A stretch of DNA of 64,000 bases from an uncultured Thermoanaerobaculia bacterium. Lineage in GTDB: Bacteria; Acidobacteriota; Thermoanaerobaculia; Multivoradales; JAGPDF01. The position numbers and the translations under genes were made by a program. The notes below the pieces were generated by a model. The model made no database searches. It had not been told where the DNA came from and saw only the letters and a list, made by a program, of their open reading frames with translations. The DNA is taken from positions 704 through 64,703 of the forward strand of contig CAYZBH010000004.1 of the NCBI GenBank assembly GCA_964476605.1. Direction: 5' to 3'. Shown here piece by piece: positions 8,127 to 33,889 of this stretch (the first letter of the stretch is position 1; each line of letters starts with the position of its first letter).

Positions 8127-8155
8127 CCGTCGATTTCCGTCGGCGGAGCGGGGCC

Positions 8156-12391: not shown

Positions 12392-12481
12392 CAGCAACGC
12401 TCTGCCGAAGTCGGAAAGAGGCTGCCCCCTCCAGCGGCGGAGGCGTGGAGGGTAGCCGCTCGGATAGGCTTCCACCGTCGC

Positions 12482-13855: not shown

Positions 13856-14932
13856 ATGGCCCGCCTGCACGAGCTGCTCCGCTACACCAAGGCCCATTCG
13901 GGCTCGGATCTCCATCTCGCGACCGGCATGGAGCCGCGCATCCGGCGCTTCGGGGCGCTCGAGCCGGTGCCGGGGTGGCAGCCACTCTTGGCCGCCGAGC
14001 TCGCCGAGCTCCTCCGCGAGCTGGTGACCGAGACGCAGTGGGAGGAGTACGCCGCGAGCGGCGATCTCGATCTGGCGCTCGGCTTGCCCGGTGTCGCCCG
14101 CTTCCGCGTCAACTACCTGCGCCAGGAGAACGGCCCCTCGGCGGTCTTTCGCGCGATCCCGGAGCAGATCCTGTCGGTCGAGGAGCTGGGGCTGCCGCCG
14201 TCGGTGGCGCGCCTCGCGGAGCTCCGGAGCGGTCTCGTCCTCGTCACCGGGCCGACCGGCTCGGGGAAGTCGACCACCCTCGCCGCCATCGTCGACCGCA
14301 TCAACCGCGCCACGGCACGCCACATCGTGACCATCGAGGAGCCGGTCGAGTTCCTGCACGCGCCGATCCGCTCGGTCTTCTCGCAGCGCGAAGTCGGCCG
14401 CCACACGGACTCCTTCGCTTCGGCGCTCCGCGCCGCGATCCGCGAGGACGCCGACGTGGTGATGGTCGGCGAGCTCCGGGACGTCGAGACGATCGGCCTG
14501 GCGCTGCGCGCCGCGGAGATGGGGATGCTGGTCTTCGGCACCCTGCACACCAACAGCGCCGCGAAGACGATCGACCGGCTGATCGACGTCTTCCCCGTGG
14601 AGGAGCAGGCGCAGGTGCGGCTCTCGCTCTCGGAGTCGCTCGCGGCGATCGTCGCGCAGCTCCTCCTGCCGCGCGCCGACGGCACGGGGCGCGTCGCGGC
14701 GATCGAGCTGATGCTGCGGACGTCTGGCCTCCCGGGCATCATCCGCGAGGGGAACCTGCCGATGTTGGAGACCCTCATCCAGAGCGGCAAGGCGCTCGGC
14801 ATGCAGCTCCTCGACGACGCCCTCATGGCGCTCGTCGAAGCCGGGACCGTCACCCCCCGCGAGGCCTACCTGAAGGCGCTCGACAAGGCCCGCTTCGCCC
14901 CGCTGATCGAGGACGAAGGCGCCGCCGACTGA
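13856..14932 (+). CDS. pilT: Twitching motility ATPase PilT
   Basis: Canonical PilT length (358 aa). LVTGPTGSGKSTT. IVTIEEPVEF. DADVVMVGELRD. LVFGTLHTNSAAKTIDRLIDVFP. 13 bp downstream of the preceding PilT-family gene. Confidence 0.85.
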   Translation: MARLHELLRYTKAHSGSDLHLATGMEPRIRRFGALEPVPGWQPLLAAELAELLRELVTETQWEEYAASGDLDLALGLPGVARFRVNYLRQENGPSAVFRAIPEQILSVEELGLPPSVARLAELRSGLVLVTGPTGSGKSTTLAAIVDRINRATARHIVTIEEPVEFLHAPIRSVFSQREVGRHTDSFASALRAAIREDADVVMVGELRDVETIGLALRAAEMGMLVFGTLHTNSAAKTIDRLIDVFPVEEQAQVRLSLSESLAAIVAQLLLPRADGTGRVAAIELMLRTSGLPGIIREGNLPMLETLIQSGKALGMQLLDDALMALVEAGTVTPREAYLKALDKARFAPLIEDEGAAD

Positions 14933-19300: not shown

Positions 19301-22300
19301 ACCTGACGGCAAGCCGCCTCCTCGTGGATCTCTCCGCGCTGCCCCAGGTGTCGGCCTCGGTGCGCATCGGGAACGGCGGGCGCACTCCCGTCGGCCCTGG
19401 CCTGCCCGTGGCCTTCTTCGACGGCGATCCGCAGTCGGGCGGAGCCCTGATCACGACGAGGGAGGTTCCGCAGCCCTTGCTTCCGGGCGGCTACGCCGAC
19501 GTCTCCGTGAGCTTCCCTCTCGTGGCAGTTTCCTCCGGCCTCCTGGTGGTGGTTGCCGACCACGACGGGGTCTCGGGGCGGGAGCTCGAGTGCGACGAGG
19601 CGAACAACGTCGCGTCGGCCAGCCTCGATCTCACCTCGCTCGGGCTCTGGATCACGCTCGACGATGCCACCACGGCCGTCGGCGCGGGAGACGAGGTCGA
19701 AGTGATTCTCGCGGTCCACAACGCCTTCGCCGGAGCAGCTTCCGGCATCGCGGTCGAGGACACGCTTCCCCAACACACGCAGTTCGTTTCGGCGAGCGAC
19801 GGTGGTGCCGTGTCTGCGGGTGTCGTCTCGTGGCCCGCCTTCGGACTCGGGTCGGGCGAGACGAAGATCCTGCGCCTGACGTACGAGGTCGACCCCGCGA
19901 TTCCGATCGGCGTCACCAGTCTCACGAATCAAGCGACCGTCACCGACGACGGCTCGCAGGGACCCGATCCCTCCCCCGGGAACAACGTGGCGACCGACGT
20001 GAACACGGTGACCACGGTGACGGCGGACGCAGGCGGACCCTACCTGGCGGCGGAAGGGACGACGGTGCTCCTCGACGGCACGGCCTCATTCGATCGCGAC
20101 GGCACCATCGTCTCCTACCTCTGGGATCTCGACGGAGACGGGGAATACGACGACGCCAGCGGCCCGACCGTGCTTTGGTACGCGGCCGACGAGGGGGCAT
20201 TCACCGTCCGGCTCCAGGTGACGGACGACGCGGGCGAGATCGACGTCGACGCGGCTTCGGTGGTGATCTCGAACGTCGCGCCATCGATCGAAGCGCCGGC
20301 GGCGATCCCCGGAGAGGAGGGCGCTGCCCTGACCCTCGCGAGCGTCGTGGTGGGAGATCCGGGACTCGAGGACGGGCTCGTCGCCACGGTGGCGTGGGGG
20401 GATGGCGCCGAAGAGTCTTTCCCGGTTGCGCGCGGCAGCCTCGCTCGAGACCACACCTACCTCGAGGACGGTACCTACGCGATCGAGCTTTGCGTCGCCG
20501 ACGGAGACGGCGGGGAGACGTGCGCGGCGATCGCGGCGCAGGTGGCGAACGTCGCCCCGCGGATTCCGGTCGCCGTGGGCTACGACGTGCTGGGCTGGTC
20601 TCACGAAGAGTTGGGGGCCGGAGGGACGACCTCCTGGAACGTGGCTGGGGACGGCCTTTACGCGACGGAGCTCAGGAATGGGGAGCCGACGGTGCTGGTC
20701 GGGGATCTTCCGAGCCTCGGGGAGATCGCGTTCGACGTCCGGACGACCGACGGCGACGACGACTACTTCGGAGTCGCTGTCGGCTTCCATCCGGGCGATC
20801 TGGCCAACCACTCGGCCGACTACCTCCTGGTGGACTGGAAGGGAGGGGACCAGAGCGGCGCGCATCGCGGCCTCGCGCTCTCCCGCGTGCGCGGCGTGCC
20901 GATCCCCTCGGAGCTCTGGGCGCACTTCGACGCGGCCTCCAACGGCTCGGAGAACAGCGTCACGGAGCTCGCGAGAGGACTCACCCGCGGACATCAGGGC
21001 TGGCTCCGGAACACCGCCTATCGCTTCCGGCTGGAGGTCGGTTCCTCCCGCTTGCGCGTCTGGGTCGACGACGTGCTGGAGCTCGACTGGGCAGGATCGA
21101 TACCCGCCGGCGGGCTCGCGTTCTACGACTACTCGCAGGCGGCGACCACTTTCGCGACGGCCTCCTCGGCGCTCGCCCTCGGCGGCTCGGAGGGCGACTC
21201 GCTCGCGCTTCGCGCGCGCTTCTTCGACCAGGGAATCGAGGACACGCACACCGCGCGGGTCGCTTGGGGGGACGGCTCGGAGGAGTCGGTCCCTGTGGCC
21301 GAGGAACCGGGGGTCGGCGAGGTCCAGGCGACCCACGTCTACCCGGACGAGGGGGATCTGACGGCAGAAATCTGCGTCGCTGACGACGAGGGGGACGAAG
21401 GGTGCGCGGAGGTCCCGGTGCGCCTGGAGAACGTCGCGCCCACGCTGACCTGGATATTGACGACGACCGGATTCCGGGAGGATCCCGTGTCGCTCGCCGG
21501 GACGACCTTCACCGATCCGGGCATCCTCGATCTCCACAGCGCGACCGTCGACTGGGGTGACGGCACGGTCGAACCGGCGACGGTCATCGAGTCGAACGGC
21601 AGCGGCTCCGTCGAAGGGGCGCACGCCTACTCCTCGGCGGGGACCTACGCGCTCTCGCTCTGTCTCGACGACGGGGACGGAGGAGTGACCTGCGGGAACC
21701 GCACGCTCGAGCTGGTCGATCGCTTCCTGGATCTCGCGGTGACGAAGACGGTCTCGCCCGGGGAGGCACGGCCGGGCCAGCGAGTGACCTACGCGCTGAC
21801 GGTCACGAACCCAGGAACCCTGGCGGCCACGGGAGTGACTCTCACCGACCTCCTCCCGCAGCATCTCGGCTTCGTCAGCGCGAGTGGCGGCGGGACCCAC
21901 GCGAGCGGCGTGACGACGTGGGCGATCGGCACCCTCGCGCCGGGAGGCTCCGCGGTCGTGACGCTTCAGGCCGATGTCGCGGCGAGCGCGCCTTTCGGAG
22001 CCACGGTCTGGAACCACGCTTCCGTCGCGGACGACGGTGCCTCCGGCGCCGATGGAAATCCAGGAGACAACGAGGCTGCGGTACCTCTCCGCTTGAGCGA
22101 CTCCGTGACCCCGATCGTCACGATCGCCTCGCCGCTCGCCGGTACCGAGGGGCTGGCCCTCGCGCTCACGGGGGTCACCTTCGCGGATACCGCTCCCAGC
22201 CAGCGCCATACGGCGACCATTGACTGGGGCGACGGCACGACCGGCGCGGGAACCGTCACTCCCGCTTCCGGCCTGACCGGCACGATCGGCGGCTCTCACG

Positions 22301-25300
22301 TTTACGCCGACGACGGGATCTACCCGCTCGAGGTCTGTGTCACCGATCTGGGGTCCCATACGGGGTGCACGTCGGCAGCGATCACGATCGAGAACAGCAC
22401 TCCGGTGCTCCTCGACCCGGGTCCGGTCGACCTCCATCACTGGCGGGCGGAGGAGTACGCATCGACCGAAGCCCACGCGGACTGGCAGGTCGCGGCGGAC
22501 GGGCTCTCCGTTCATCAGGTCATCAACAGCACGCCGTCCGTCTTCGTCTCGCCGATCCCGGCGTTCGGAGTTCCCCTCGAAGGGATCATGAAGGTCGGTT
22601 GGGACGGGAACTGGGACAACGACTACATCGGCTTCGCGCTCGGGATCCACCGCGGAGACACCCTGAATCCGGACGCGGAGTGGTTGCTCGTCGATTGGAA
22701 GCAGGGGGACCAGACGGGCGCCCTTGCCGGCTTGGCGGTATCCCGCGTCTGGGGCATCCCGATGACCGGAGAGTTCTGGGTCCACACGGACAGCCCGGAC
22801 AACGGGCCGGAGAGTGGCGTCCAGGAGCTCGCCCGCGCCGCCACGCTGTCGCGCATCGGATGGACCGAGAACCGGGACTACCGCTTTCGCTTCGACTACG
22901 GGCCGACGCACCTGCGCATCTGGGTGAACGACGTGCTCCAGTTCGATCTCGTCGGAGCTTTCCCGGAGGGGGGCTTCGCCTTCTACAACTACTCGCAGCA
23001 GGACGTGCTCTACCGAGGCTTCACGGTCGGCGCCGAAGACCGCTTCGAGGGGGAGACCTTCGAGCTCATCGCGCCCTTCACTGATCTCGGCCCGATCGAC
23101 ACCTTCACAGGCGACGTCGTCTGGGACGACGGGGCGACGACCAGCGTCGTTCCCGAGGCGACCGGCGGATTCGGGGCGATTCGCGAGACCCATGTCTATC
23201 CGGACGACGGGGACTACGCGATCGGCGTCTGCGTCTCGGACGACGACAGCGCTACCGACTGCGGCTCCTTCCCGCTCCTGGTCTACAACCTGCCGCCGGT
23301 CGTGGAAGCCTCGGCGGAACTGATCGCGAGCGCGGGAATCGACCAAGCCTTCCCGCTCGCGACCTTCACCGACCCCGGCCGGCTCGACATCCACACCGCA
23401 ACGGTCTCCTGGGGTGACGGCGAGACCGGACCGGGGGACGTTTCGGAGGACGACGGGTCGGGAAGCGTCGCCGCGGTGCACGCGTATGCCGAGACCGGCG
23501 TCTATGGGGTGGAGATCTGCGTCGCGGACGACGATGGCGGCGTGGGCTGCGACACGACGGCGGTCACCGTGGGTGCGGAGCTGCCGGCGCTCGTCGCGAC
23601 GAAAGTCGTGACGCCGATCGACCTGGACGGCGACGGTCAGGTCACCCCGGGCGATCAGCTCGTCTATCGCGTCGAGATCGCGAACGTGGGAATCACTCCC
23701 GCGACCGGTATTCGTCTCACCGATCCCGTGCCGGCGCACACCGGGATCGTCGCGGGATCCGTGACGCCGGAGCTCTACGCCGTCGGAGAGGATCCCGTGA
23801 CGGTCGAAATCCCGACGCTCGCGCCCGGCGATTCGATGGTGGTGCAGTTCGTCGTGAGCATCGACACGCCACTCCCGACCGGCGTTCGCGAGATCGTCAA
23901 CAGCGGCACGGTGGAGGCGAACGAGGTCTCGCCGCTCCTCACGGACGACCCGTCGCTGCCCGGGCCGGCCGACCCTACGCGGATCCCGGTCGTGGTCTCG
24001 TCGGTGCTCGGGCTCGTGAAGACGGCGGAGCTCGTCGACCTCGACGGGGACGGCGTCGCGACGCCCGGAGACGAGATCCTCTGGCACGTCGAAGCGGCGA
24101 CCGGGGGCGACGTGGCGGCGACCGGCGTCCTCCTGCGCGATTCCATCCCCGAGAATTCGACGCTGGTGCCGGGTTCGGTCGTTGTCTCGCAGGGAACAGT
24201 CGTCGCCTTGGACCCGCTGACGGTCGCGATCGGCGATCTCGCGGTCGGTTCGCTGGTCACGCTCGAGATGCGGACCACGATCGATCCTGCGCTTCCGCCG
24301 GAGGTCACGGAGATCGCGAACCAGGCGTCGGTCGGCTCGACCGAGATCGACCTCCTGCTCTCGGACGATCCCGCGACACCGATCCCCGCTGATCCGACCG
24401 TGGTCCCGGTCTATCGCTATCCGGTGCTCTCGGTCGCTCCGGCGACGGTGGTCGAGGGGGATGCCGGTGTGACGCCTCTCCTCTTCACGGTGTCACTCGA
24501 CCGCGCGGTCACGGAGAGCGTGAGCGTTACTTGGAGCCTTGCCGACGGGACTGCGACGGCGGGAGAGGACTACGCGCCGGCCTCGGGCGTCGTCTCGATC
24601 CCCGCCGGAGCCACCGAAGCCACGGTGAGCGTCGACGTGCTCGGTGACCAGGTCGTCGAGGCGGACGAGACTTTCTCGGTGACGCTCGCGGAACCCGTTC
24701 TGGCGACGCTCGGCGTGGCGACGGCGACCGGCACGATCGTGAACGATGACGCGACCGAGCTCTTCGCCGCCGACGTGGCGGTCGAGGAGGGGGAGCCGGC
24801 GATCGTGAGCGTCGTGCTCACCTTCCCGAGCGCGCTGCCGGTGTCGGTCGCCTGGACGACGGCCGACGGCACGGCGGTGGCGGGGGAGGACTACGTGCCC
24901 GCGTCGGGTATCGTCGAATTCGCGCCCTTGCAGACCTCGCTCACGCTCGTCGTCGAGACGATCGAGGAGGAGGTTCAGGAGGAGGACGAGACGCTCAGCG
25001 TTCTCTTCTCGGCGCCGCTCGGTGCGGGTCTGCCCGATCCGGAAGCGATCGTGACGATCCTCGACGACGACACGCCCGACTGCGCTCTCACCTGTCCCGA
25101 GCGGCTCGTCGTTGCGAACGATCCCGCCCTCTGCGGGGCGTCCGTCGTATTACCCGATCCCTCGAGCGTGGGGGAGTGCGGCGAGGTGTTCTGCGCTCCA
25201 GCGTCGGGCGAGTTCTTCCCGGTGGGGGTGACGACGGTCGTTTGCACCGCCGGCGCGGTCGCGGTGAGTTGCACGTACGAGGTCGAAGTGCAGGATCTCG

Positions 25301-25905
25301 AGCCGCCGGAGGTGGAAGCGCCGGAGCTCGCTGTGGGGAACGATGCCGGGCTCTGCTCCGCGGTCGTGTCGTTCGAGGCCACGGCTAGCGACAACTGCCC
25401 GGGTCTCAGCGCTCTCACCTGCGCTCCATCCTCCGGGACCTCCTTCCCGGTTGGCACGACGCCGGTGAGCTGTTCGGTCGCCGATGCGGCCGGGAACAGC
25501 GCGTTCGATAGCGGTCGCGTCGAGGTTTCGGACCTCGAGGCGCCGATCCTCGACAGCTGTCCGGACGACGTGACCCTGGAGCTCCCTCCTGGCACCGAGA
25601 GCTGGCGGGTCGAATTCGCCCTTCCGCCCGGGTCGGACAACTGCCCGGGCCTGTTGATCGACTGCGTCCCGGCCTCTGGGAGCGACTTCCCGATCGGAAG
25701 CACGGAGGTCCTCTGTACCGCGATCGACGGTGCGGGTCTCCAAGCGAGCTGTGACTTCGTGGTCGATCTCTCGGCGCTCTCGGTGCTCGAGATTCCGACC
25801 CTTTCGGGACGGAGCCTGGCGCTTTTCGCGCTGATGCTCGGAGCAGGAGGAGGACTTCTCATTCGTCGGCGGAGGGGGTCGGCTAGCATGCGAGGAAACC
25901 GATGA
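16336..25905 (+). CDS. Giant (3,189 aa) secreted multidomain adhesin: DUF11 conserved repeats, FG-GAP/integrin-alpha-like beta-propeller, PKD-like repeats, two LamG/ConA-like modules, two Calx-beta domains, four HYR-like Cys-bounded modules, C-terminal IPTL-CTERM-like sorting tail
   Basis: - Signal peptide: MKQSHASLAGVVVSLGLWAFGGMAAAEA.
- DUF11-like: VTNTG/LTVTNPGTLAATGVTLTDLLPQHLGFVSASGGG.
- FG-GAP: DIDNDGKPEIL, DLDGDGFAEIVVG, DFDGDGAPEIGVA, DFDGDGWLEIIY, DVDRDGNAEIVV.
- PKD-like: xWGDG....HxYxxxGxYxxxxCVxDDDGG..C, about 6 copies.
- Calx-beta: TVVEGDAGVTPLLFTVSLDRAV...ETFSV.
- HYR-like: C...CGASVV...C.P.SGS.FPVG.T.V.C.A, 4 copies.
- C-terminal tail: EIPTLSGRSLALFALMLGAGGGLLIRRRRGS (motif + TM + basic). 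Confidence 0.85.
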   Translation: MKQSHASLAGVVVSLGLWAFGGMAAAEAPPLPSSRYGAVSLAGAPAPDGTVVSARFAGLEVAATVVDASSGTARYRLDVPGDRAETPEIEGPAEGEPFELRVGGALAATETWQSGLYTAADLATGGGADLAVAIDDGVTSIAAGGSLGAAVSVANQSSMAATGVDLVVDLPTGAALVSASDGGALDAQGRLRWPQFAISGGDGATRSFVAQLPSAYPAGIEIVETRVAVRHDGAEGGDPDPSDDSAGDVDALEAAPDLVTSVSDGASSVAPGSTLFYRTTVANSGTQGATGVELEVALPSGAELFSTSHGGHESGGVVRWPAVSLPASATFERVMTLRLPEDLDPGVGSLTVLAHAADDGTNGDDLEPADNDAIDVDGVTHAPDLVAREVSRFGTTTDPTTLEISGEVLVTMTNSGTLASGPFTTVVFLDVNGDGSYDPLVDSALGTAGHLSLVPQESNSVLVPVAGTVPFLGDRLFAFLDSDHEVSELSETNNVANSSTSCGAVPPPESFAPRVELSWPPAGGPTNFPRAIDSLSTPLVVQLTDDNGDGLWNELDIPDLVFVTADLTYLLEPQVALRAIRGGSGTPIFDVNGFFPHPTNPQLLSFSGLAAGDIDNDGKPEILSTTFGPAPFNQIRAYEHNGVPKWVSAAYRTHPSPTGLSNRDNPTIADLDGDGFAEIVVGANVFDRFGHLLWRGTGGQAFQSSGNSGDRGGAISVAADVDLDGRMEVVTGNTLYRWNGEIVWQVPWPDGFPAVANFDDDPQAEIVVVSQGTVRLHDTDGTLIWGPVTLPGSDPEAGGPPTIGDFDGDGAPEIGVAGSDVYVALDTDGSILWQAQTQDYSSNLTGSTTFDFDGDGWLEIIYRDERRLRIYRGYDGEVLFESVLSSNTQTEEPVVADVDRDGNAEIVVTSDRAPDVPVAPGERTYGLRVFGDAGDGWVAARPIWNQHAYTPELVDTDAGTPAVPAWSWLEHNSFRANVPPGGDPTAAPDLTASRLLVDLSALPQVSASVRIGNGGRTPVGPGLPVAFFDGDPQSGGALITTREVPQPLLPGGYADVSVSFPLVAVSSGLLVVVADHDGVSGRELECDEANNVASASLDLTSLGLWITLDDATTAVGAGDEVEVILAVHNAFAGAASGIAVEDTLPQHTQFVSASDGGAVSAGVVSWPAFGLGSGETKILRLTYEVDPAIPIGVTSLTNQATVTDDGSQGPDPSPGNNVATDVNTVTTVTADAGGPYLAAEGTTVLLDGTASFDRDGTIVSYLWDLDGDGEYDDASGPTVLWYAADEGAFTVRLQVTDDAGEIDVDAASVVISNVAPSIEAPAAIPGEEGAALTLASVVVGDPGLEDGLVATVAWGDGAEESFPVARGSLARDHTYLEDGTYAIELCVADGDGGETCAAIAAQVANVAPRIPVAVGYDVLGWSHEELGAGGTTSWNVAGDGLYATELRNGEPTVLVGDLPSLGEIAFDVRTTDGDDDYFGVAVGFHPGDLANHSADYLLVDWKGGDQSGAHRGLALSRVRGVPIPSELWAHFDAASNGSENSVTELARGLTRGHQGWLRNTAYRFRLEVGSSRLRVWVDDVLELDWAGSIPAGGLAFYDYSQAATTFATASSALALGGSEGDSLALRARFFDQGIEDTHTARVAWGDGSEESVPVAEEPGVGEVQATHVYPDEGDLTAEICVADDEGDEGCAEVPVRLENVAPTLTWILTTTGFREDPVSLAGTTFTDPGILDLHSATVDWGDGTVEPATVIESNGSGSVEGAHAYSSAGTYALSLCLDDGDGGVTCGNRTLELVDRFLDLAVTKTVSPGEARPGQRVTYALTVTNPGTLAATGVTLTDLLPQHLGFVSASGGGTHASGVTTWAIGTLAPGGSAVVTLQADVAASAPFGATVWNHASVADDGASGADGNPGDNEAAVPLRLSDSVTPIVTIASPLAGTEGLALALTGVTFADTAPSQRHTATIDWGDGTTGAGTVTPASGLTGTIGGSHVYADDGIYPLEVCVTDLGSHTGCTSAAITIENSTPVLLDPGPVDLHHWRAEEYASTEAHADWQVAADGLSVHQVINSTPSVFVSPIPAFGVPLEGIMKVGWDGNWDNDYIGFALGIHRGDTLNPDAEWLLVDWKQGDQTGALAGLAVSRVWGIPMTGEFWVHTDSPDNGPESGVQELARAATLSRIGWTENRDYRFRFDYGPTHLRIWVNDVLQFDLVGAFPEGGFAFYNYSQQDVLYRGFTVGAEDRFEGETFELIAPFTDLGPIDTFTGDVVWDDGATTSVVPEATGGFGAIRETHVYPDDGDYAIGVCVSDDDSATDCGSFPLLVYNLPPVVEASAELIASAGIDQAFPLATFTDPGRLDIHTATVSWGDGETGPGDVSEDDGSGSVAAVHAYAETGVYGVEICVADDDGGVGCDTTAVTVGAELPALVATKVVTPIDLDGDGQVTPGDQLVYRVEIANVGITPATGIRLTDPVPAHTGIVAGSVTPELYAVGEDPVTVEIPTLAPGDSMVVQFVVSIDTPLPTGVREIVNSGTVEANEVSPLLTDDPSLPGPADPTRIPVVVSSVLGLVKTAELVDLDGDGVATPGDEILWHVEAATGGDVAATGVLLRDSIPENSTLVPGSVVVSQGTVVALDPLTVAIGDLAVGSLVTLEMRTTIDPALPPEVTEIANQASVGSTEIDLLLSDDPATPIPADPTVVPVYRYPVLSVAPATVVEGDAGVTPLLFTVSLDRAVTESVSVTWSLADGTATAGEDYAPASGVVSIPAGATEATVSVDVLGDQVVEADETFSVTLAEPVLATLGVATATGTIVNDDATELFAADVAVEEGEPAIVSVVLTFPSALPVSVAWTTADGTAVAGEDYVPASGIVEFAPLQTSLTLVVETIEEEVQEEDETLSVLFSAPLGAGLPDPEAIVTILDDDTPDCALTCPERLVVANDPALCGASVVLPDPSSVGECGEVFCAPASGEFFPVGVTTVVCTAGAVAVSCTYEVEVQDLEPPEVEAPELAVGNDAGLCSAVVSFEATASDNCPGLSALTCAPSSGTSFPVGTTPVSCSVADAAGNSAFDSGRVEVSDLEAPILDSCPDDVTLELPPGTESWRVEFALPPGSDNCPGLLIDCVPASGSDFPIGSTEVLCTAIDGAGLQASCDFVVDLSALSVLEIPTLSGRSLALFALMLGAGGGLLIRRRRGSASMRGNR

Positions 25906-28900
25906 TGTGCGCCAAGCGATCGATGTTCGGCGACGGCCAGAGGCTGGTTGCGAGGTTGCTGATCGCCGCCTCGCTCCTGCCGACCGGGCCGGTGATGGGC
26001 CTGGGTCTCCTCGCGCCCGAGGAGCTCGGAATCGCCGTCGTGGAGCGCGTCCCCCTCGACGGGCGAGAGCTCACCGTCCGGGTGCGCACCACCACCTTCG
26101 ACGTCGTTCGCGATCGGGCCGCGCGAGTCTGGAGCAGCTGGCCGCCGCGCTTCGCGCGCTTCAGCGTTTTCGAGCTGCCGACGTGGATTTCGGCTAGGGG
26201 GGGCTCGGGCGGGTCGCTCCCGTTCACCGGTGGCGGCCCTAGGAACGCGCTGCTGCGCTGGCTGCAAGCGGACGGCGCGACGACCTCGGGCTCCTCGGTC
26301 CCTGCGCCGCAGGCGCAACCCGCTGCCGGCGATCCCTCGGACCCCTGGGGGATTCGCGAGGGATGGCGGCGGCCGGTCCTTCCGGCGCCACCGACGCCTC
26401 CGGATTTCGCTCTGCCTTCGCCCGGCGGGGCGGCGAACGCCGTCGCGCGACCGGGGACGCTTCGGCCGGCGGCGCCGGTGCCGCTCGCGCCGGCGTGGAA
26501 TCTGGTTTCGATCTCGTGGACGCCGGGCGATCCGTCGCCTGCGGCGGTGCTCGCCCCGGTCGCGTCGTCGATCGTCCGCGCGTTCGCCTTCGACGCTTGC
26601 GATCCCTCGGATCCTTGGAAGCTTTACGACCCGAGCGACCCGGGTGAGAGCGACCTCGCCGCGATCACGCCGGCGAAGGGGTTCTGGCTCGAGACGACGG
26701 GCGCCTCGACGATTCCGGAGGCGGGGCCGGAGCCGGCCGAGACGTCGATTCCGCTCTGCGTCGGCTGGAATCTCGTCGGCTTCCCCCGCTCTTCGTCGCA
26801 GGCGGTCGCCACGGCGCTCGCGACGATCGCCGGCCGCTATCTCCGTGTCTTCGGGTTCGATCCGAGCGATGCCGCCGACCCCTGGGAGGTCTACGACGTC
26901 GGCGTGCCGGCGTGGGCGAACGACCTCCAGGAGATGCGTCCCGGACGCGGCTACTGGATCTACGCCACCGAGGCGACGACCCTGGTGGTCTCGAACTCGA
27001 CCGATGCTCCGACGGTTTCGTTCGTCGCGCCGGCCGATCTCGCCGAGGTCACGGAGCGGGCGCCGGTCGTCGGGACGGTGCGCTCGACGTCGCTCGCCGG
27101 GTGGGAGCTCTCCTTCCGCGAGGCTGGCGTGGGAGGTTGGACCTCGCTCGCCACCGGCATTGCGCCCGTGGAAGCGAGTCCGCTCGCGACTTTCGATCCG
27201 ACCCTCCTCGAGAACGGGCTCTACGAGCTGCGGCTGCACGCGGTCGACACGCTGGGCCAGGTGGACGAGGCGACGATCGCGCTCTCGGTCGAGGGGCAGC
27301 AGAAGATCGGGCACTTCTCGCTCACCTTCGTCGATCTCGAGGTGCCGCTCGCCGGGCTGCCGATCCAGGTGCTGCGCGGCTACGACTCGAGGCGACGCGG
27401 CTCCTCCGGCGACTTCGGGTACGGGTGGAAGCTCGAGCTCAAGAGCGGCACGCTCCGCCACAACCGGATCCCGGGCGAAGGGTGGCAGCTCGCGGGGGGC
27501 TTCCTGCCGTGCGAAGCCTCGTACGAGCTCGACTCGCACCAGTCGACGGTACGTCTCTCGGATCGGGAGGTCTACCGCTTCCGGCCGGTGCTCTCGAGCC
27601 TCACACCGACGGCGGGGGGATGCTTCGCGACCTTCGGCTATGCGTTCGTGGACGGGCCGATTCCCGGTGCCACTCTGGAGGTCGTCGGAAACCGCCAGGT
27701 CTTCTACACCAACGGCGGCACCCAGCTCGTCGACACCGAGAGCTTCACCCTCTACGAGCCGGCGAAGGTCCGCCTGAGAACTCGCGACGGCCGCCAGTTC
27801 GAGCTCGACCGGCCGAACGGCGTCACCCGAATCGTCGACGCCAACGGCAATCGCATCGACTTCACGCCGACCGGCATCAGCCACTCGAACGGCGTGTCGA
27901 TCGTCCTCGAGCGGGACGGGCAGGGGCGGATCACCCGCGTCGTCGACCCGGCGGGAGCGGAGCTCCTCTACGGCTACGGTGGATCCGGGGACCTCGCGAC
28001 GTTTACCGATCGCGCGGCGAGCGTCACCAGCTTCGCGTACGGCGCCGGGCACTATCTGACGGAGATTCACGATCCGCTGGGGCGGACGCCGATCCGCAAC
28101 GAGTACGGTCCCGACGGGCGGCTCACGCGGCACGTCGATGCCTTCGGGCACGAGATCCTCTACGACCACCAGCTCGACGGCCGTCGTGAGGTGGTGACCA
28201 ACCGGCTCGGCGCCTCGCGCCTGCTCGACTACGACGCTCGCGGCAACGTCGTGCACGAGGTGGACGAGACGGGCCTCTCGACCGTTCGCACCTTCGACGC
28301 CGACGACCAGCTCCTTTCGGAGTCGATCGGCGGCCTGCCGGCCACGACCTACGCGTACGACGCCAACCGGAACCTGACGCGCACGACCGATCCGCTCGGG
28401 CACGCGACCCTCTTCACCTACGACGCCAAGGGAAACGTTCTCACGACGACCGACCCGCGCGGCGCGGTGACGACGAACGCCTACGACGCACGGGGCAACC
28501 TCGTTTCGACGATCGATCCGGCGGGCGGCTCCACGGCCTACACGTACGACGCGAAGGGAAATCTCCTCTCCGAGACCGACGCGCTCGGCCACGCGAGCGC
28601 CTTCGTCTACGACGCGCGCGGAAACCTCACGCGCGAGACCGACGCGCTCGGGAGCGTCGCGACCTACAGCTACGACACGCTCGGCAACCGGCGCTCCGAG
28701 ACCCGCACGCGCACGCTCCCCGACGGGACTCTCGAGCCGCAGGTCACGGGCTACATCTACGACGCGATGGGGCGCCTGCTCGCGACCACCGCGCCCGACG
28801 GCTCGGTGACCCGCTCGGAGTACGACGCGTTGGGCAACGTCGCGGCGACGGTCGACGCGCTCGACCGGCGCACCGAGCACACCTACGACGCGCTCGGCCG

Positions 28901-31736
28901 GATGACGCGAACCGACTACGCGGACGGTACGCACGACGCAGCCGGCTACGACGCAGAGAACCGGCGGACGACTTTCATCGATCGCGGGGGCCGGACGACG
29001 ACTTACGAGTACGACGCCGCCGGGAGGCTGCGCCGGACCTACTACCCGGACGGCGCCGTCGTCGAGCAGGTCTACGACGTCGCGGGGCGGTTGAGCTCGA
29101 CGATCGATCCGCGCGCGCACGCGACGGCCTACGGGTACGACGCCGCGGGCCGCCGAACGTCGGTCACCGACGCCCTGGGGCATATGACCTCGTGGAGCTA
29201 CGACGCGGCGGGGAACGCGACGTCGGTGACCGACGCGCGCGGCTTCACGACGGCGTCGCTCTACGACGCGCTGGGGCGGCTCACTCGGACGGTCTTTCCG
29301 GACGGGACGGAGCGGCGGACGGAGTACGACGCGTTGGGCCGCCGGACGGCCGAGATCGACGAAGCCGGGGCGCGAACCGAGTTCGGGTACGACGCTGTCG
29401 GCCGCCTGGTCTCGGTGACCGACGCGCTCGGCCAGGTGACCTCTTACGGCTACGACGAGGTCGGGAACCGGATCGCGCAGACCGACGCCAACGGCCACGT
29501 CACGCGCTTCGAGCTCGACAGTCTCGGCCGTCAGACGAAGCGGATCCTCCCCGGCGGAGCGGAGGAGCGCTTCACTTACGACGCCGCCGGGCAGCGCCGG
29601 ACCCGGACCGCCTTCGACGGGGTGGTCACCCACTACGCCTACGACCTCGCGGGGCGGCTTGCGACGCGCACCTATCCGGGCGGACGCGTCGAGAGCTTCA
29701 CCTACACGCCGAGCGGGCGGCGCGCGACGGCGACCGACGCGCGCGGCACGACGAGCTACGGTTACGACGCCCGGGATCGCGTCACGTCGATCCTCTCGCC
29801 GGACGGCCGGAGCCTCGCCTTCGCCTACGACCTCGCGGGCAACCGCTTGTCGACCACGGCCGATGTCGCTGGGCAGTCCCTTCCGACGCAGTACACCTAC
29901 GACGCCCTCAACCGCCTGGAGACGGTGACCGACCCGGACGGGAAGGTCACGGTGCACGGCTACGACGCCAACGGCAACCGGGAGAGCCTCGCCTTTCCGA
30001 ACGGCGTCGCGACGGTCTACGACTACGACGCACGGAACCGGCTGACGCACCTCGTGGCGGTCTCGCCGGTCTCGGGGGTGGTTTCGAGCTACGCCTACAC
30101 GCTTTCGCCGACCGGCAACCGGGCGCGGATCGAAGAGCAGGACGGGACGACGCGGAGCTACGGCTACGACGCGCTCTACCGGCTGACCGACGAGCAGGTG
30201 ACGTCGAGCCCGGCGCCCGGGAGCCCGACCCTCTGGCGGAACGTCTTCGGCTACGACCCAGTGGGGAACCGCCTGACCCAGCAGCGCACCGAAACGACGG
30301 GCGGCACGCACTCGGTGGCCTACGGCTACGACGCGAGAGACCGCCTGCTCACGGAAGACAGCACGACCTACGGCTGGGACGAGAACGGCAACCTGACCAG
30401 CAAGAGCGGCCCCGAGGGCGCGACCTACGTCTGGGACGACGAGAACCGCCTGACCGCGGTGAACCTCGCGAACGGCACGGTCGTCGAGCACACCTACGAC
30501 GTCGACGGCACGAGGATCAGGACGCGGACGACCCCGGCGACGGGACCCCCCACGACGACCGACTACCTCGTCGACCCCTGGCACCAGACGAGCGCGGCCG
30601 GCCGAGGCCTCGTCCTCAGCCAAGTCATAGCCGAAACCGACGAAGCCGGGAACCTCACCGCCTACCACGTCCGAGGCGACGACCTTCTCGCGACCCTGCG
30701 GCCCAACCCGACGCCACCGCCTGGCGAATCCCCCTGGATCGCGCGCTACCTCCACGCCGAAGGGATCGGGACCGTCCGGGCGCTCACGGACGAGCAAGGC
30801 AACGTCACCGATCGGTACACCCTCGAGGCGTTTGGAACGCTGCTGGATCACCTCGGGGACGATCCGAACGCGTACCTCTTCGCGGGGGAGCCGCTCGATC
30901 CGAATTCGGGCTTCTATTACAACAGGGCGAGGTGGGTGGATTCGAGGGCGGGGAGATTCGAAAGTGCTGATCCCCGCGTTGGATCCAGCTTCGAGCCTCT
31001 GACGCTTCACAGGTACCTTTACGCGGGCGCGAGTGCCACGAACCTTGTCGACCCGTCCGGGGAGGACTTCCAGGCCGTAGCTCTAGCCGCGGTGAACGCA
31101 GCGATCGGAATCCTGCAAACTGCACTTGTCTTCTCCGTTCTTGGTGCAATTGGTGGCGCTGCTGATGCTTACTTCGCCGAAGCTGATGTGGCAGCTGGTT
31201 TTGTCAGCGGGATGAAGGTCGGGTTCGCAACGGGCCTCCTCTGGCGACTCAAGTTCCTGCGGCCAACACTGACGGCACTTGGCCTGACGCTTGGCGCGAC
31301 GGCAACGTTTCAGGCGTTCATGGACGGCGACACAGGGCTCGCACTGTTCAGGGGCATCGTGTTCGTCGCTGGCGTTGCCGGAGTAGTCACGGCTGGTGGA
31401 ACGCATCCCGGCGGAGAGATGATCGTGTATCGCTCGGTCAACTCGGCGACCGGTGAGATCCAATATGTGGGCATCACAAGGAACCTTGCAGCCCGCGCTG
31501 CTGCGCACCTGCGCCAGAAGGGAATCGAAATTGAGCCGATTGGTGGGATTGAGGACTTGAGTATGACCGATGCCCGGAATGTCGAGGAAGCTCTCATCGT
31601 CTACTACGGGCTCGGCAAGAACGGAGGTACGCTGCTAAATAGAATCCACAGCATCTCACCACGAAGCCCAATATACGCTGAGCGGCTCTCTCGGGGCGTG
31701 CAGTTGCTTCGCGGAGCAGGTTACCCAGACATCTAG
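25902..31736 (+). CDS. RHS/YD-repeat polymorphic toxin (Tc-toxin BC-fusion-like): signal/Pro-rich N-terminus, SpvB-like domain, >40 YD repeats, RHS-associated core, C-terminal hydrophobic linker + GIY-YIG-type nuclease toxin domain
   Basis: - Start ATGA overlaps the stop of the upstream adhesin (translational coupling).
- SpvB-like: VPLAGLPIQVLRGYDSRRRGSSGDFGYGWKLEL.
- Dozens of YDxxGNL / YxYDxxGRL repeats.
- RHS core: VDPWHQTS...YYNRARWVDSRAGRFESADP...HRYLYAGASATNLVDPSGE.
- C-terminal ~245 aa is lower-GC and contains GEMIVYRSVNSATGEIQYVGITRN...R...H...E..LI...N (GIY-x11-YVG, R, E, N motifs). Confidence 0.85.
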   Translation: MMCAKRSMFGDGQRLVARLLIAASLLPTGPVMGLGLLAPEELGIAVVERVPLDGRELTVRVRTTTFDVVRDRAARVWSSWPPRFARFSVFELPTWISARGGSGGSLPFTGGGPRNALLRWLQADGATTSGSSVPAPQAQPAAGDPSDPWGIREGWRRPVLPAPPTPPDFALPSPGGAANAVARPGTLRPAAPVPLAPAWNLVSISWTPGDPSPAAVLAPVASSIVRAFAFDACDPSDPWKLYDPSDPGESDLAAITPAKGFWLETTGASTIPEAGPEPAETSIPLCVGWNLVGFPRSSSQAVATALATIAGRYLRVFGFDPSDAADPWEVYDVGVPAWANDLQEMRPGRGYWIYATEATTLVVSNSTDAPTVSFVAPADLAEVTERAPVVGTVRSTSLAGWELSFREAGVGGWTSLATGIAPVEASPLATFDPTLLENGLYELRLHAVDTLGQVDEATIALSVEGQQKIGHFSLTFVDLEVPLAGLPIQVLRGYDSRRRGSSGDFGYGWKLELKSGTLRHNRIPGEGWQLAGGFLPCEASYELDSHQSTVRLSDREVYRFRPVLSSLTPTAGGCFATFGYAFVDGPIPGATLEVVGNRQVFYTNGGTQLVDTESFTLYEPAKVRLRTRDGRQFELDRPNGVTRIVDANGNRIDFTPTGISHSNGVSIVLERDGQGRITRVVDPAGAELLYGYGGSGDLATFTDRAASVTSFAYGAGHYLTEIHDPLGRTPIRNEYGPDGRLTRHVDAFGHEILYDHQLDGRREVVTNRLGASRLLDYDARGNVVHEVDETGLSTVRTFDADDQLLSESIGGLPATTYAYDANRNLTRTTDPLGHATLFTYDAKGNVLTTTDPRGAVTTNAYDARGNLVSTIDPAGGSTAYTYDAKGNLLSETDALGHASAFVYDARGNLTRETDALGSVATYSYDTLGNRRSETRTRTLPDGTLEPQVTGYIYDAMGRLLATTAPDGSVTRSEYDALGNVAATVDALDRRTEHTYDALGRMTRTDYADGTHDAAGYDAENRRTTFIDRGGRTTTYEYDAAGRLRRTYYPDGAVVEQVYDVAGRLSSTIDPRAHATAYGYDAAGRRTSVTDALGHMTSWSYDAAGNATSVTDARGFTTASLYDALGRLTRTVFPDGTERRTEYDALGRRTAEIDEAGARTEFGYDAVGRLVSVTDALGQVTSYGYDEVGNRIAQTDANGHVTRFELDSLGRQTKRILPGGAEERFTYDAAGQRRTRTAFDGVVTHYAYDLAGRLATRTYPGGRVESFTYTPSGRRATATDARGTTSYGYDARDRVTSILSPDGRSLAFAYDLAGNRLSTTADVAGQSLPTQYTYDALNRLETVTDPDGKVTVHGYDANGNRESLAFPNGVATVYDYDARNRLTHLVAVSPVSGVVSSYAYTLSPTGNRARIEEQDGTTRSYGYDALYRLTDEQVTSSPAPGSPTLWRNVFGYDPVGNRLTQQRTETTGGTHSVAYGYDARDRLLTEDSTTYGWDENGNLTSKSGPEGATYVWDDENRLTAVNLANGTVVEHTYDVDGTRIRTRTTPATGPPTTTDYLVDPWHQTSAAGRGLVLSQVIAETDEAGNLTAYHVRGDDLLATLRPNPTPPPGESPWIARYLHAEGIGTVRALTDEQGNVTDRYTLEAFGTLLDHLGDDPNAYLFAGEPLDPNSGFYYNRARWVDSRAGRFESADPRVGSSFEPLTLHRYLYAGASATNLVDPSGEDFQAVALAAVNAAIGILQTALVFSVLGAIGGAADAYFAEADVAAGFVSGMKVGFATGLLWRLKFLRPTLTALGLTLGATATFQAFMDGDTGLALFRGIVFVAGVAGVVTAGGTHPGGEMIVYRSVNSATGEIQYVGITRNLAARAAAHLRQKGIEIEPIGGIEDLSMTDARNVEEALIVYYGLGKNGGTLLNRIHSISPRSPIYAERLSRGVQLLRGAGYPDI

Positions 31737-31744
31737 CGGGAGAG

Positions 31745-32221
31745 TTGCAATTGACAAAGATAGGCGACGTCTTCGGAATCCAGACCAAGATTGGGCTAGC
31801 CCTCTTTCAGGTTACTCACCGCCATTCGCAGCTGGGTCACCTGATCCGAGTTCTTGAAGGTCACTTCTCTGTTTGCCCGGAAGACCTGGAGGTACTAGTG
31901 ACTCGGCCTCATCGATTCCTCACTTTCTTTCCAGTTACTGCCGCCGAGAAGCGAGGCATCATCAGGAAGGTGGGGAGCCTCGGAGTTCCGGAGTCTTGCA
32001 AGGCGTTTCCAGTGTTTCGCGCGGCCGGTGCAACTGATCGAAAGGGAAGGGTGCTGACCTGGTGGCTCTGGGATGGTTCGCGAAGTTGGCCAGCTGGAGA
32101 TTTGAGCGACGAACAGCGAAAGCTCCCCATACGAGCGGTCTGGAACGACACTCTGCTGATTGAGCGGATTGACGCTGGATGGACGCCGGAGTCTGACGCT
32201 AGAGGGGAGAAGATGGGCTGA
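31745..32221 (+). CDS. Putative cognate immunity protein for the RHS C-terminal nuclease
   Basis: 158-aa ORF starting 9 bp after the RHS stop, same strand. Lies in the same low-GC tract as the toxin tip. No signal peptide and no recognisable family. Position and composition are the only evidence. Confidence 0.45.
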   Translation: MQLTKIGDVFGIQTKIGLALFQVTHRHSQLGHLIRVLEGHFSVCPEDLEVLVTRPHRFLTFFPVTAAEKRGIIRKVGSLGVPESCKAFPVFRAAGATDRKGRVLTWWLWDGSRSWPAGDLSDEQRKLPIRAVWNDTLLIERIDAGWTPESDARGEKMG

Positions 32222-32261
32222 AGACGGCGCTCAGAAGACGGCGCTCAAGGAAGAGAGGTCC

Positions 32262-32600
32262 GAAAAGGTGCCAGCCGTTTCTCCGAAGCTTCTAGAGGCA
32301 TCTTGAATTCGAGAGCGGATCTCTTGGGCAGCAATCTCCCGCGACGAGGTTCTGTGGCGAGATGAAGGGCTCGTGGCCTCGGCAGTAGCGCGCGGAGATT
32401 CGCCCCAAAATGATGCCAACATGGTGCCAGCCGTTTTTCTGGACTGCTGAAGCGAAAAGGGGAAAAGGTGCCAGCCGTTTTCCTAGTTTTCCTAGGCTTC
32501 TTCAGGCATCTTGAATTCGAGAGCGGTTCTCTTGGGCAGCAAACTCTCGCGGCGAGGTTCTGTGGCGAGAAGAAGGGCTCGTGAACAGCGGCGGTAGCGC
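32262..32600. repeat. Direct repeat array, period ~199 bp (2 full copies + partial), each copy beginning with a REP-like GGTGCCAGCCGTTT core
   Basis: 32262-32395 and 32461-32600 align at ~85% (GAAAAGGTGCCAGCCGTTT...CATCTTGAATTCGAGAGCGG.TCTCTTGGGCAGCAA.CTC.CGCG.CGAGGTTCTGTGGCGAGA.GAAGGGCTCGTG). A partial third REP sits at 32423-32438. Non-coding. Lies between the immunity gene and the 3' end of the RAYT gene. Confidence 0.6.
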
Positions 32601-32758
32601 GTGGAGCCTTGCTCTGAGCGTCACCTGACGCAAGTGCGCATCGTATACGGGCGAGGTCCCCGTGAGGCGTCACCGAGCGGTGGTCACATCTCGCGGCCCT
32701 ACATCGGCCCAGCGACTCACCTAGGCCCTTTGTTCAGGATTCGATCGAGTCGCGGCTC

Positions 32759-33688
32759 CTACCCGGAGGCGAAGCGGCGCGGTAGCGCAGGCGGGAAGGA
32801 GCCCTCGGGGAAGAGGACGTCGAGTGTTCCCGTGCGCAGCCGATCGGCGGCGCGGCGATACGCGTTGAGGAATCCCCGATAGGCCTCGCGGAGGGCCGTT
32901 CGAGCTGTCCGTGAGGCGGCATGGACGAGCGGGGCGGGGCCCTTCTTGAGCCGGTTCGGTTCGTGGTGGGGATCTTGCCGCAACACGCCCTCCCAGCCGA
33001 GCGGTGGCGCTCCCGTCTGGCGTTCCTGGTTGCGCCCTTCCTGCTCGATTCCGTCGACCAGGTCCCAAATGTGGCTCCTCCGCCGTGATTCGGTAAGCCC
33101 TCTCCAGCAAGGGAGTTGCACGAGCTCAAGCGATTCGACCGTGACGAACGCCTCGGGATCGAGGGGAAGGCGCCGGCGGGCTGCGGTGTGCTCGAGCGTG
33201 CGGTCGATCCAGCGGCCGGAAACGGGCTGATTCTCGAGCAGAGCCTTGGCGCAATGGGCGCCGGGCCAGTCGAAGGGAGAAGACACGAGGCCCTCTTTGA
33301 CGCCATGAGCGAGGACGTAGCGGAGGCGAGCGATTTGGGCCTCCTCCTCGCTGGAGACCAGGATCGCTTGGTATCTCCGGCCCCAGAATTTCTCACGCCA
33401 GCGGATGAGCCGCCCGGCTTCGCGGGCGAGATTGGAGTTGAGGTAGTTCATGAAGCTGGCCAGCCGCTGTGCGCTCTCGACGGTCACCAGCAGGTGGAAA
33501 TGATTGGAGAGAAAGGCGAAGGCGTGGAGCTCGACCGGGTAGAGGCGCGCGGCCCGAGCGAGGACGCCGAGCGTCAGGTCGCGGAGGATCGGCGTGGGGC
33601 TGAGAAGGAGCCGGCCCTGCACGGTCCGACAGGTGACTTCGACGAGCGATCCAGGCGGAATGAAGCGCAACCGGCGACACATACTCAC
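32759..33688 (-). CDS. IS200/IS605-family Y1 (HUH) transposase, REP-associated tyrosine transposase (RAYT)-like
   Basis: HUH motif NHFHLLVTV. Downstream conserved W..RRYQAIL segment carrying the candidate catalytic Tyr (REKFWGRRYQAILVSSEEE). ~300 aa. Flanked on both sides by REP-like repeats. Confidence 0.7.
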   Translation of the reverse strand: MSMCRRLRFIPPGSLVEVTCRTVQGRLLLSPTPILRDLTLGVLARAARLYPVELHAFAFLSNHFHLLVTVESAQRLASFMNYLNSNLAREAGRLIRWREKFWGRRYQAILVSSEEEAQIARLRYVLAHGVKEGLVSSPFDWPGAHCAKALLENQPVSGRWIDRTLEHTAARRRLPLDPEAFVTVESLELVQLPCWRGLTESRRRSHIWDLVDGIEQEGRNQERQTGAPPLGWEGVLRQDPHHEPNRLKKGPAPLVHAASRTARTALREAYRGFLNAYRRAADRLRTGTLDVLFPEGSFPPALPRRFASG

Positions 33689-33707
33689 CTAGGACGAAAG
33701 GGGAGGG

Positions 33708-33777
33708 TCACTTCTTTCGGAAATCGGCTGGCACCTGGCCGGCCAGAGCTACTTCTTTCGGAAATCGGCTGGCACCT
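33708..33777. repeat. Tandemly duplicated 27-bp REP-containing unit (ACTTCTTTCGGAAATCGGCTGGCACCT x2) immediately upstream of the RAYT start
   Basis: Copies at 33708-33736 and 33749-33777. Confidence 0.6.
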
Positions 33778-33889
33778 CACCTAGCCAGGTACGGGGCAGG
33801 CGAAACGTCCGCCGGGAGACCGCATCGAAGGGGAGGGGCAATCCGCGGAGACGACGCGCTCCGTAGAAGAGGGGGGAGGACCTCGAGCG

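Follow-up and report, generated by a model that had tools for sequence, protein, structure and literature searches.

Introduction

In toxin complex (Tc) systems, the TcB–TcC cocoon consists of a shell of rearrangement hotspot (RHS) repeats with an aspartyl autoprotease core, which surrounds a variable C-terminal toxin. Among the toxin domains carried by RHS proteins is Tox-URI1, a GIY-YIG (URI) nuclease type that was defined in silico in 2012 by Zhang, de Souza, Anantharaman, Iyer and Aravind on the basis of the residue signature ‘Y, YxG, R, [RK]xxE, N’, with RHS and filamentous-haemagglutinin proteins as carriers and with Imm14, Imm26, Imm44 and Imm51 as immunity families (PMC3482391). The pairing of Tox-URI1 with Imm26 is thus already catalogued in silico, and GIY-YIG tips have since been predicted on Rhs proteins of Salmonella and Stenotrophomonas. 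In experiments, TipC of Yersinia pseudotuberculosis, an Imm26-domain protein, binds and neutralises TepC, an Mg2+-dependent DNase encoded adjacent to it (PMC10833071). Here, we describe a locus in a 64,000-nucleotide (64-kb) stretch of DNA from an uncultured Thermoanaerobaculia bacterium of the phylum Acidobacteriota (contig CAYZBH010000004.1, positions 704 to 64,703; the whole stretch is referred to below as the window), which appears to encode an RHS toxin with a GIY-YIG nuclease tip and its cognate immunity protein.

The toxin–immunity pair in the window shares with Tox-URI1/Imm26 (PMC3482391) the Y, YxG, R, [RK]xxE, N signature, carriers of the RHS, filamentous-haemagglutinin-repeat and HINT types, and a broad phyletic spread. 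Its immunity family overlaps Imm26, PF15428 being matched by 7 of 35 members with a best E-value of 4.8e-6, but most of the family, the window protein included, scores below the Pfam model and forms a divergent branch of ~153 aa built mostly of beta-strands, in contrast to the description of Imm26 as ‘mostly alpha’. A further difference from Tox-URI1 is a linker of ~115 aa ahead of the nuclease domain, which is confined to a handful of metagenomic proteins. With the Rhs nuclease effectors of type VI secretion systems (T6SS), for example the predicted PAAR–RhsA–GIY-YIG protein of Salmonella SPI-6 (PMC11669294) and proteins with solved shells (8h8a, 7q97, 8qja, Tse15 and Tse5), the window protein has in common a YD-repeat cocoon, an Rhs core and a DPxG boundary. 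In both, an immunity gene comes after a variable tip, and there are earlier predictions of a GIY-YIG tip on Rhs carriers. The window protein differs in that it has no PAAR, VgrG or T6SS context, a signal-peptide-like N-terminus, two ~90-aa repeats with an Ig-like region, and a conserved giant adhesin encoded upstream.

The WapA proteins of Bacillus subtilis and Streptococcus suis (see PMC12704120) are likewise RHS toxins that do not depend on a T6SS; Sec-exported by means of a signal peptide and wall-associated, they have a C-terminal nuclease-type tip, and the immunity gene lies downstream. Wall-binding repeats hold WapA in a monoderm envelope, whereas the window protein probably belongs to a diderm acidobacterium, has no detected wall-binding repeats and comes with a separate adhesin that bears an IPTL-CTERM signal. 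In contrast to the window toxin, TepC lacks any recognisable domain; it is a free T6SS substrate rather than the tip of an RHS protein. Finally, the RHS shell and aspartyl autoprotease core enclosing a variable toxin are as in TcB–TcC, but the window protein lacks SpvB, the TcB beta-propeller and a TcA partner and is accompanied by an immunity gene.

The RHS protein carries a GIY-YIG-like domain at its C-terminus

The RHS/YD-repeat polymorphic toxin gene occupies 25902..31736 and, as with all parts of the module described below, is read on the forward (+) strand. It encodes 1,944 aa, and an identical protein has been called on a Logan metagenome contig (SRR17659558). The repeat shell and canonical core boundary proposed in an initial annotation of this DNA are well borne out by three profiles: Pfam RHS_repeat PF05593 matches the protein in 27 stretches (E 2.5e-142), NCBIfam TIGR01643 identifies YD repeats in 18 stretches, and TIGR03696 matches residues 1643–1720 with 51.8 bits (cut-off 32.5). 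The shell extends approximately over residues ~634–1642 (27800..30827), and the Rhs-associated core, presumed to be an aspartyl autoprotease, corresponds to the TIGR03696 match (30828..31061). The core motif WVD(1680)SRAGRFESAD(1690)P...LVDPSG/E(1721) contains two conserved Asp residues and the DPxG boundary. It terminates in ...HRYLYAGASATNLVDPSGE, which can also be written HRYLYAGASATNLVDPSG-E(1721) and is the usual RHS boundary. By analogy with the known behaviour of the family, the core is expected to cleave itself.

Past this boundary lie 224 residues, composed of a hydrophobic stretch of ~115 aa (residues 1721–1835) and a soluble domain of ~108 aa (residues 1836–1944). The hydrophobic stretch, a Gly/Ala-rich pre-toxin linker in hydropathy plots (31062..31406), has its peaks of hydrophobicity at residues ~1722–1750 and ~1810–1830. 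The soluble domain (31407..31733) displays in order Y1843, Y1855-x-G1857, R1865, R1892-x-x-E1895 and N1913, including the sequence IVY-x11-YVG, so that the earlier description of the tip as a hydrophobic linker joined to GIY-YIG motifs holds. Since these residues match the ‘Y, YxG, R, [RK]xxE, N’ signature, we assign the tip to the Tox-URI1 type of GIY-YIG nuclease domain.

A homology search with the tip gave 20 relatives, from which a domain alignment of the family (A1) was made. Alignment positions Y10, Y22, G24, T26, R32, E62 and N80 are invariant and correspond to Y1843, Y1855, G1857, T1859, R1865, E1895 and N1913 of the RHS protein, whereas R1892 (column 59), three residues ahead of E1895, is variable. 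The invariance of the catalytic-type residues argues for an active enzyme. Those relatives that have a source name or a recorded Pfam match are RHS carriers, one of them named ‘filamentous hemagglutinin’. The Pfam GIY-YIG profile PF01541 is matched by 18 of the 20 family members at E <= 1 (best E 1.1e-6). When the family profile was compared with sequences in the PDB, weak matches were found to two GIY-YIG domains, those of GrxS16-N and UvrC, and the profile alignment places the family Y, YvG, R and E on Y19, Y29, R39 and E76 of UvrC.

The AlphaFold2 model of the tip (predicted local distance difference test score, pLDDT, 84; predicted template-modelling score, pTM, 0.79) has a beta-beta-alpha-beta-alpha-alpha topology, consistent with the beta-beta-alpha-beta-alpha(-alpha) fold of GIY-YIG domains. 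The top 11 Foldseek matches are all PD-T4-3 or UvrC, with probabilities of 0.82–0.98 and E-values of only 0.05–0.5. Structure prediction thus yields the nuclease-like fold that the initial annotation had anticipated. The top-ranked structural matches are the GIY-YIG domains of I-TevI, UvrC, SLX1, Eco29kI, PD-T4-3 and EndoII, all of which act on DNA. Two other identities were considered for the tip and rejected. The Tox-URI2 profile (PF15653), which had initially been proposed for comparison alongside GIY-YIG, gives no match; the GIY-YIG profile itself matches most of the family and is sub-threshold in the window copy. A role in anti-phage defence was set aside, as PADLOC returns no match for the tip or for the immunity protein.

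A conserved immunity gene follows the toxin domain

The ORF downstream of the toxin gene (31745..32221, 158 aa) opens eight nucleotides past the toxin stop codon. A likelier start is the TTG at 31751, which is located 6 nt 3′ of GGGAGAG and leaves a gap of 14 nt from the toxin gene, the TTG at 31745 being the alternative. The start at 31751 gives a protein of 156 aa (31751..32221) and agrees with a 99%-identical 156-aa protein called elsewhere. Apart from this adjustment of its start, the predicted ORF proves to be a real, conserved protein with 89 homologues of ~153 aa; among the 35 family members compared with Imm26, four are fused to an RraB domain. The AlphaFold2 model is of high confidence (pLDDT 95) and beta-rich, with generic SH3/Tudor-like matches only, and no close solved relative was found. 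The protein has neither a signal peptide nor membrane segments. Given the absence of a signal peptide, the expected site of toxin action is the bacterial cytoplasm.

Synteny links the two genes. On the first three contigs with toxin homologues, the next gene downstream encodes an immunity homologue (E 1e-24 to 3e-29). Hidden Markov model (HMM) searches extended this to 83 of the toxin loci, 79 of which have a member of the immunity family, nearly always 0–113 bp downstream and on the same strand. On the basis of this synteny and of its homologues, the downstream ORF is predicted to be the cognate immunity gene, as the initial annotation had supposed, and belongs to an Imm26-related family.

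A search with the toxin profile through one genome per species identified 141 loci, distributed over Pseudomonadota, Myxococcota, Bacteroidota, Planctomycetota, Bacillota, Acidobacteriota, Chloroflexota, candidate phyla and others. The best match to the window tip among species representatives of GTDB is 63% identical. In the 60 loci at which carrier types were counted, the toxin domain ends RHS proteins in 19 cases, CdiA-type proteins (DUF637/PT-VENN/Fil_haemagg) in 3 and PT-HINT proteins in 2. It also occurs in orphan cassettes, in which fewer than 60 codons, and in some cases fewer than 20, precede the domain.

Several of the orphan cassettes have a notable arrangement. One contig (ERZ25070786 ctg150440c, 3812–8467) contains two successive orphan Tox-URI1 cassettes 3′ of a gene for a 3,306-aa RHS/Laminin_G_3 protein, each cassette being followed by a fusion of an immunity homologue to RraB (290 and 484 aa). 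Stand-alone Tox-URI1 cassettes with 11–36 codons upstream are found at ~5950–6800 of two Pseudomonas loci (L005 and L008) and one Pandoraea locus (L007). All three precede an immunity homologue with a strong match (E ~1e-69 to 1e-73) and look like orphan toxin–immunity modules.

Weighing the nuclease assignment

Residue motifs, matches to the family profile, predicted fold, near-obligate synteny, diversity of carriers and replacement of the tip in related proteins (see below) agree with one another, and the central inference is well supported. We put the probability that the locus is an RHS toxin–immunity module, with a predicted GIY-YIG nuclease tip and a cognate immunity gene on an exchangeable low-GC cassette, at roughly 0.8. 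Several observations weigh against it. The window tip scores 20.6 bits against a PF01541 gathering threshold of 22.6 (E 5.6e-4) and covers only positions 3–36 of the 78 in the profile, and the loop at domain residues 74–81 of its model is of low confidence. The window immunity protein itself has no PF15428 match at E <= 1, and no Pfam match at all. The export route is taken solely from the signal-peptide-like N-terminus. Furthermore, no biochemical characterisation of any Tox-URI1 toxin was found in the literature searched, and DNase rather than RNase activity is therefore a prediction.

The last point bears on a variant of the same module in which the nuclease would target RNA (tRNA or rRNA) rather than DNA. 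Imm26 has been called typical of systems with RNase activity (PMC11669294), and the fusion of some immunity homologues to RraB, the regulator of ribonuclease activity B domain, points in the same direction. However, the six proteins heading the structural matches of the tip are described as endonucleases, Imm26 was paired with Tox-URI1 by Zhang et al. (PMC3482391), and the sole Imm26 protein to have been tested, TipC, blocks a DNase (PMC10833071). An RNA target thus seems unlikely. The initial annotation had also left open whether a DNase-type toxin would act between bacteria or against eukaryotes. The nuclease-type toxin with immunity is upheld; an anti-eukaryotic role is unlikely, because a cytoplasmic-type immunity gene accompanies the toxin at 79 of the 83 loci.

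Taken together, a GIY-YIG toxin–immunity module could operate as follows. The 1,944-aa RHS protein would be exported by means of a Sec-type signal peptide, with the YD-repeat shell enclosing the C-terminal region, and the Rhs-associated core would cut the chain after ...VDPSG, at about residue 1720/1721. The released piece of ~224 aa would comprise the hydrophobic linker, which probably helps in membrane passage, and the GIY-YIG (Tox-URI1) nuclease. Once in the cytoplasm of an adjacent bacterium, the nuclease would degrade nucleic acid, with DNA as the likeliest substrate. The producer and its kin would be protected by the co-transcribed 156-aa Imm26-related protein, which would bind the nuclease and block it. 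The end of the core, the tip and the immunity gene form a low-GC cassette of a kind that is swapped by recombination in conserved core-coding DNA.

The RHS gene overlaps a giant adhesin gene

Immediately upstream of the RHS gene is a gene (16336..25905, +) for a surface adhesin-like protein of 3,189 aa, characterised by its Pfam domains, by TIGR04174 and by homologous pairs. The N-terminus is signal-peptide-like, and the domains identified are DUF11/CLIPPER, PKD, FG-GAP, Calx-beta and HYR. Its C-terminus, EIPTLSGRSLALFALMLGAGGGLLIRRRR (window 25764–25902), matches TIGR04174 IPTL_CTERM over the last 46 aa (24.2 bits against a cut-off of 20.5), implying that the adhesin is processed by a dedicated sorting enzyme. 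The TGA stop codon of the adhesin gene overlaps the ATG of the RHS gene (ATGA), and GAGGAA is located 5 nt upstream.

Homologous pairs were found at three related loci. In L085 the adhesin is 60% and the RHS protein 57–62% identical to those of the window, with a TGATG junction; in L088, from a Thermoanaerobaculia metagenome-assembled genome (GCA_039932055.1), the values are 52% and 66%. The overlap of stop and start codons is found in both. A third locus, L089 (ERZ26858540 ctg187431, 1–12547), shows in tandem the C-terminus of an adhesin, an RHS gene, a 132-aa gene and the N-terminus of another adhesin, an order which suggests that arrays of adhesin–RHS modules exist in a related organism. 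Three other loci (L086, L087 and L090) share the RHS N-terminus, and the adhesin is absent. The translational coupling to a giant adhesin that had been proposed is thus plausible, in view of the ATGA overlap, the GAGGAA sequence and the pairing in L085, L088 and L089. Two adjacent genes for secretion ATPases of the T2SSE family (PilB/PilT-like; 12482..13843 and 13856..14932, +) are located ~1.4 kb 5′ of the adhesin gene.

The N-terminus of the RHS protein, MMCAKRSMFGDGQRLVARLLIAASLLPTGP..., is a basic and hydrophobic stretch (residues ~1–43, 25902..26030) that resembles a Sec signal peptide in sequence and hydropathy. Neither the RHS protein nor the larger ORFs scanned, over a range from ~26 kb upstream to 11 kb downstream, gave a Pfam or NCBIfam match to a PAAR, VgrG-binding, DUF1795/EagR or T6SS gene or feature. 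These observations bear on the possibility that the protein is a T6SS-delivered Rhs effector, with VgrG, PAAR and chaperone partners elsewhere in the genome and only an incidental link to the adhesin. The best PDB relatives of the shell in phmmer searches are indeed T6SS Rhs proteins, namely 8h8a (E 2.6e-54), 7q97, 8qja, Tse15, Tse5 and Tre23, together with teneurin-like proteins, and the related locus L087 has a T6SS_Tle1-like gene ~9 kb upstream. Set against this are the absence of T6SS features over the range scanned, the Sec-like N-terminus and the retention of the adhesin–RHS overlap in L085 and L088, and we regard delivery by a T6SS as quite improbable.

A more ambitious proposal, which we offer tentatively and consider doubtful, is that adhesin and RHS toxin form a dedicated two-gene, T6SS-independent device for contact-dependent killing in Thermoanaerobaculia-like Acidobacteriota. 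In such a device the adhesin would tether or present the RHS cocoon at the surface and supply contact with the target, RHS residues ~190–365 might dock onto the adhesin, and the rare hydrophobic linker would take the GIY-YIG nuclease through the target membrane.

The hydrophobic linker as a possible toxic part

The linker is shared, wholly or partly, only with the metagenomic proteins P0001–P0006. An HMM of the linker matched none of the 83 genomic toxin loci (0/83), and the idea that it represents a widespread pre-toxin module was discarded. Its character nevertheless allows the toxic part to be placed in the linker itself, as a membrane-depolarising or pore-forming element like Tse5-CT, the GIY-YIG domain then being inactive or accessory: residues 1722–1750 and 1810–1830 are strongly hydrophobic and Gly/Ala-rich, and linker and domain co-occur in P0001–P0006. 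However, the immunity gene follows the GIY-YIG domain at loci that have no linker, and does so even at orphan cassettes where fewer than 20 codons precede the domain. The catalytic-type residues are all invariant and the immunity protein has no membrane segments. A toxic linker is accordingly very improbable.

The N-terminal region does not resemble a Tc toxin

The initial annotation had described the protein as an SpvB-fused BC type with an SpvB-like N-terminal segment. At E <= 10 the first 633 aa match neither SpvB nor any other Pfam family, and over the whole protein at E <= 1 there is no Pfam match of the SpvB, TcB mid-domain (TcdB_toxin_mid) or TcA type. The NCBIfam scan of the protein contained no SpvB, TcB or TcA match, no Tc subunit is present among its PDB matches at E <= 1e-3 (phmmer), and no TcA-type partner was found among the window ORFs scanned. 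The segment in question, residues ~470–515 (VPLAGLPIQVLRGYDS...GDFGYGWKLEL), aligns to residues 336–380 of the homologue P0117, which there matches PF20148 DUF6531 (E 6.5e-6). The window copy of the segment has no Pfam match of its own; DUF6531 recurs in RHS-repeat homologues of the protein. We take the segment (FSLTFVDLEVPLAGLPIQVLRGYDS...GDFGYGWKLEL, 27309..27446) as the DUF6531-equivalent start of the RHS shell or plug. RHS repeat matches are absent from the first 633 aa and present within 27201–28400.

Further towards the N-terminus, residues ~190–365 (window 26470–26990) form two tandem repeats of ~90 aa with the motif GWNL[VI]...DPW..YD...L..[IM].P..G[FY]W, after which comes an Ig-like region. 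Repeats and Ig-like region are conserved in the RHS homologues of Thermoanaerobaculia, and residues 160–470 match no Pfam family and, at E <= 10, no PDB sequence. The named N-terminal homologues belong mostly to Thermoanaerobaculia of the Acidobacteriota.

A reading as SpvB, TcB or TcA was rejected on these Pfam, NCBIfam and PDB comparisons, and the SpvB-based claims of the initial annotation are not supported. A Tc-like BC fusion (SpvB/TcB plus TcC) directed against eukaryotic cells without TcA, for which the RHS shell and Rhs core (features of TcC too) and the large size of a secreted protein with no T6SS genes nearby might speak, is largely refuted and hardly credible, given the missing domains, the DUF6531-equivalent nature of the cited segment, best solved relatives that are T6SS Rhs and teneurin-like proteins, and a linked cytoplasmic immunity gene at 79 of 83 loci, which is a hallmark of inter-bacterial toxins. 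The protein is an ordinary single-chain bacterial RHS protein and not a BC fusion.

Base composition and exchange of the tip

No other 1.5-kb stretch of the 64-kb window is as low in GC content as 31062–32600 (0.578, against a window mean of 0.70; z = -3.9). GC at third codon positions (GC3) is 0.90 in the shell, 0.61–0.65 in the tip and 0.60 in the downstream ORF. Maximum-likelihood change-points, together with GC3, delimit a low-GC tract (~0.58 vs ~0.70) at 30796..32548, which takes in the Rhs-associated core, the tip, the immunity gene and the REP-like repeats described below. It begins ~265 nt (~88 codons) upstream of the core boundary, at the start of the Rhs-associated core, and GC3 starts to fall at about residue 1568, with clearly reduced values from ~1670 onward. 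The drop in GC previously noted is thus real, with GC3 falling from 0.90 to ~0.6, but it does not start exactly after the boundary at 31061/31080, the change-point being at 30796. Inclusion of the Rhs-associated core is expected if tips swap by recombination inside conserved core-coding DNA, and the tract is a probable exchanged cassette. Low-GC patches at ~46800–47100 and ~49900–51800 (0.59–0.62 in 600-nt windows) are the sole others in the window.

Related loci from other metagenome-assembled genomes provide direct comparisons. The L085 shell, 57–62% identical to that of the window, gives a high-scoring segment pair that extends to residue 1807, but its tip is unrelated after DPQGL. The L087 shell can be aligned up to residue 1722 and is then followed by an unrelated tip. 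In both, GC falls from ~0.71 to 0.53–0.58 in the tip. Homologous shells with different tips therefore sustain the claim that tip and immunity gene are exchanged, whereas a recent date for the event is not shown, low GC also being seen in these two other tips. An HMM scan of all six frames of the window identified no second or orphan copy of toxin or immunity gene beyond the one pair. In the absence of an orphan former tip, there is no direct trace of displacement.

Repeats and other features of the window

A 15-nt motif resembling repetitive extragenic palindromic (REP) sequences, AGGTGCCAGCCG(A/T)TT, occurs on both strands at 21 sites, among them 15001, 15799, 15906, 32266, 32422, 32466, 33722, 33763, 35468, 35576, 36414, 36445, 37030, 43328, 44572, 45762 and 48386, where 0.01 is expected by chance. 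Just 3′ of the immunity gene there are three direct copies, and two inverted copies are found at 33722–33777. An ORF similar to REP-associated tyrosine transposases (RAYT) is located at 32759..33688 on the reverse strand (-); it matches Pfam Y1_Tnp (E 1.4e-7) and, below the cut-off, NCBIfam REP_Tyr_transpos (E 4.7e-14). This ORF adjoins the toxin–immunity cassette downstream and lies between inverted REP-like copies. A direct repeat of 97 nt, 90% identical between its copies (32279–32375 and 32487–32583), is also present in the low-GC tract, each copy following a REP-like motif. A scan of 31400–33900 for promoters and terminators gave nothing above shuffled expectation. An antisense ORF of 2,011 aa (24975..31010, -) runs over the RHS gene; such long overlapping ORFs are an artefact of the ~70% GC content and not genes.

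Implications

The analysis gives a predicted function to the tip and to the immunity ORF, even though the tip lies under the Pfam GIY-YIG cut-off. The immunity gene is uncalled on the source contig and has no Pfam match, so that its recognition is a gain in annotation. The comparison also lends strong support to a near-obligate pair, formed by a Tox-URI1-type GIY-YIG domain and an Imm26-related family, across many phyla. The sole aspect that could lead to something new is the coupling to an adhesin in a probable T6SS-independent setting. An adhesin-coupled, Sec-type RHS toxin bears on the question of how RHS toxins are delivered by diderm bacteria that lack a T6SS and, if functional, the adhesin coupling would offer a testable delivery route for RHS toxins in diderms.

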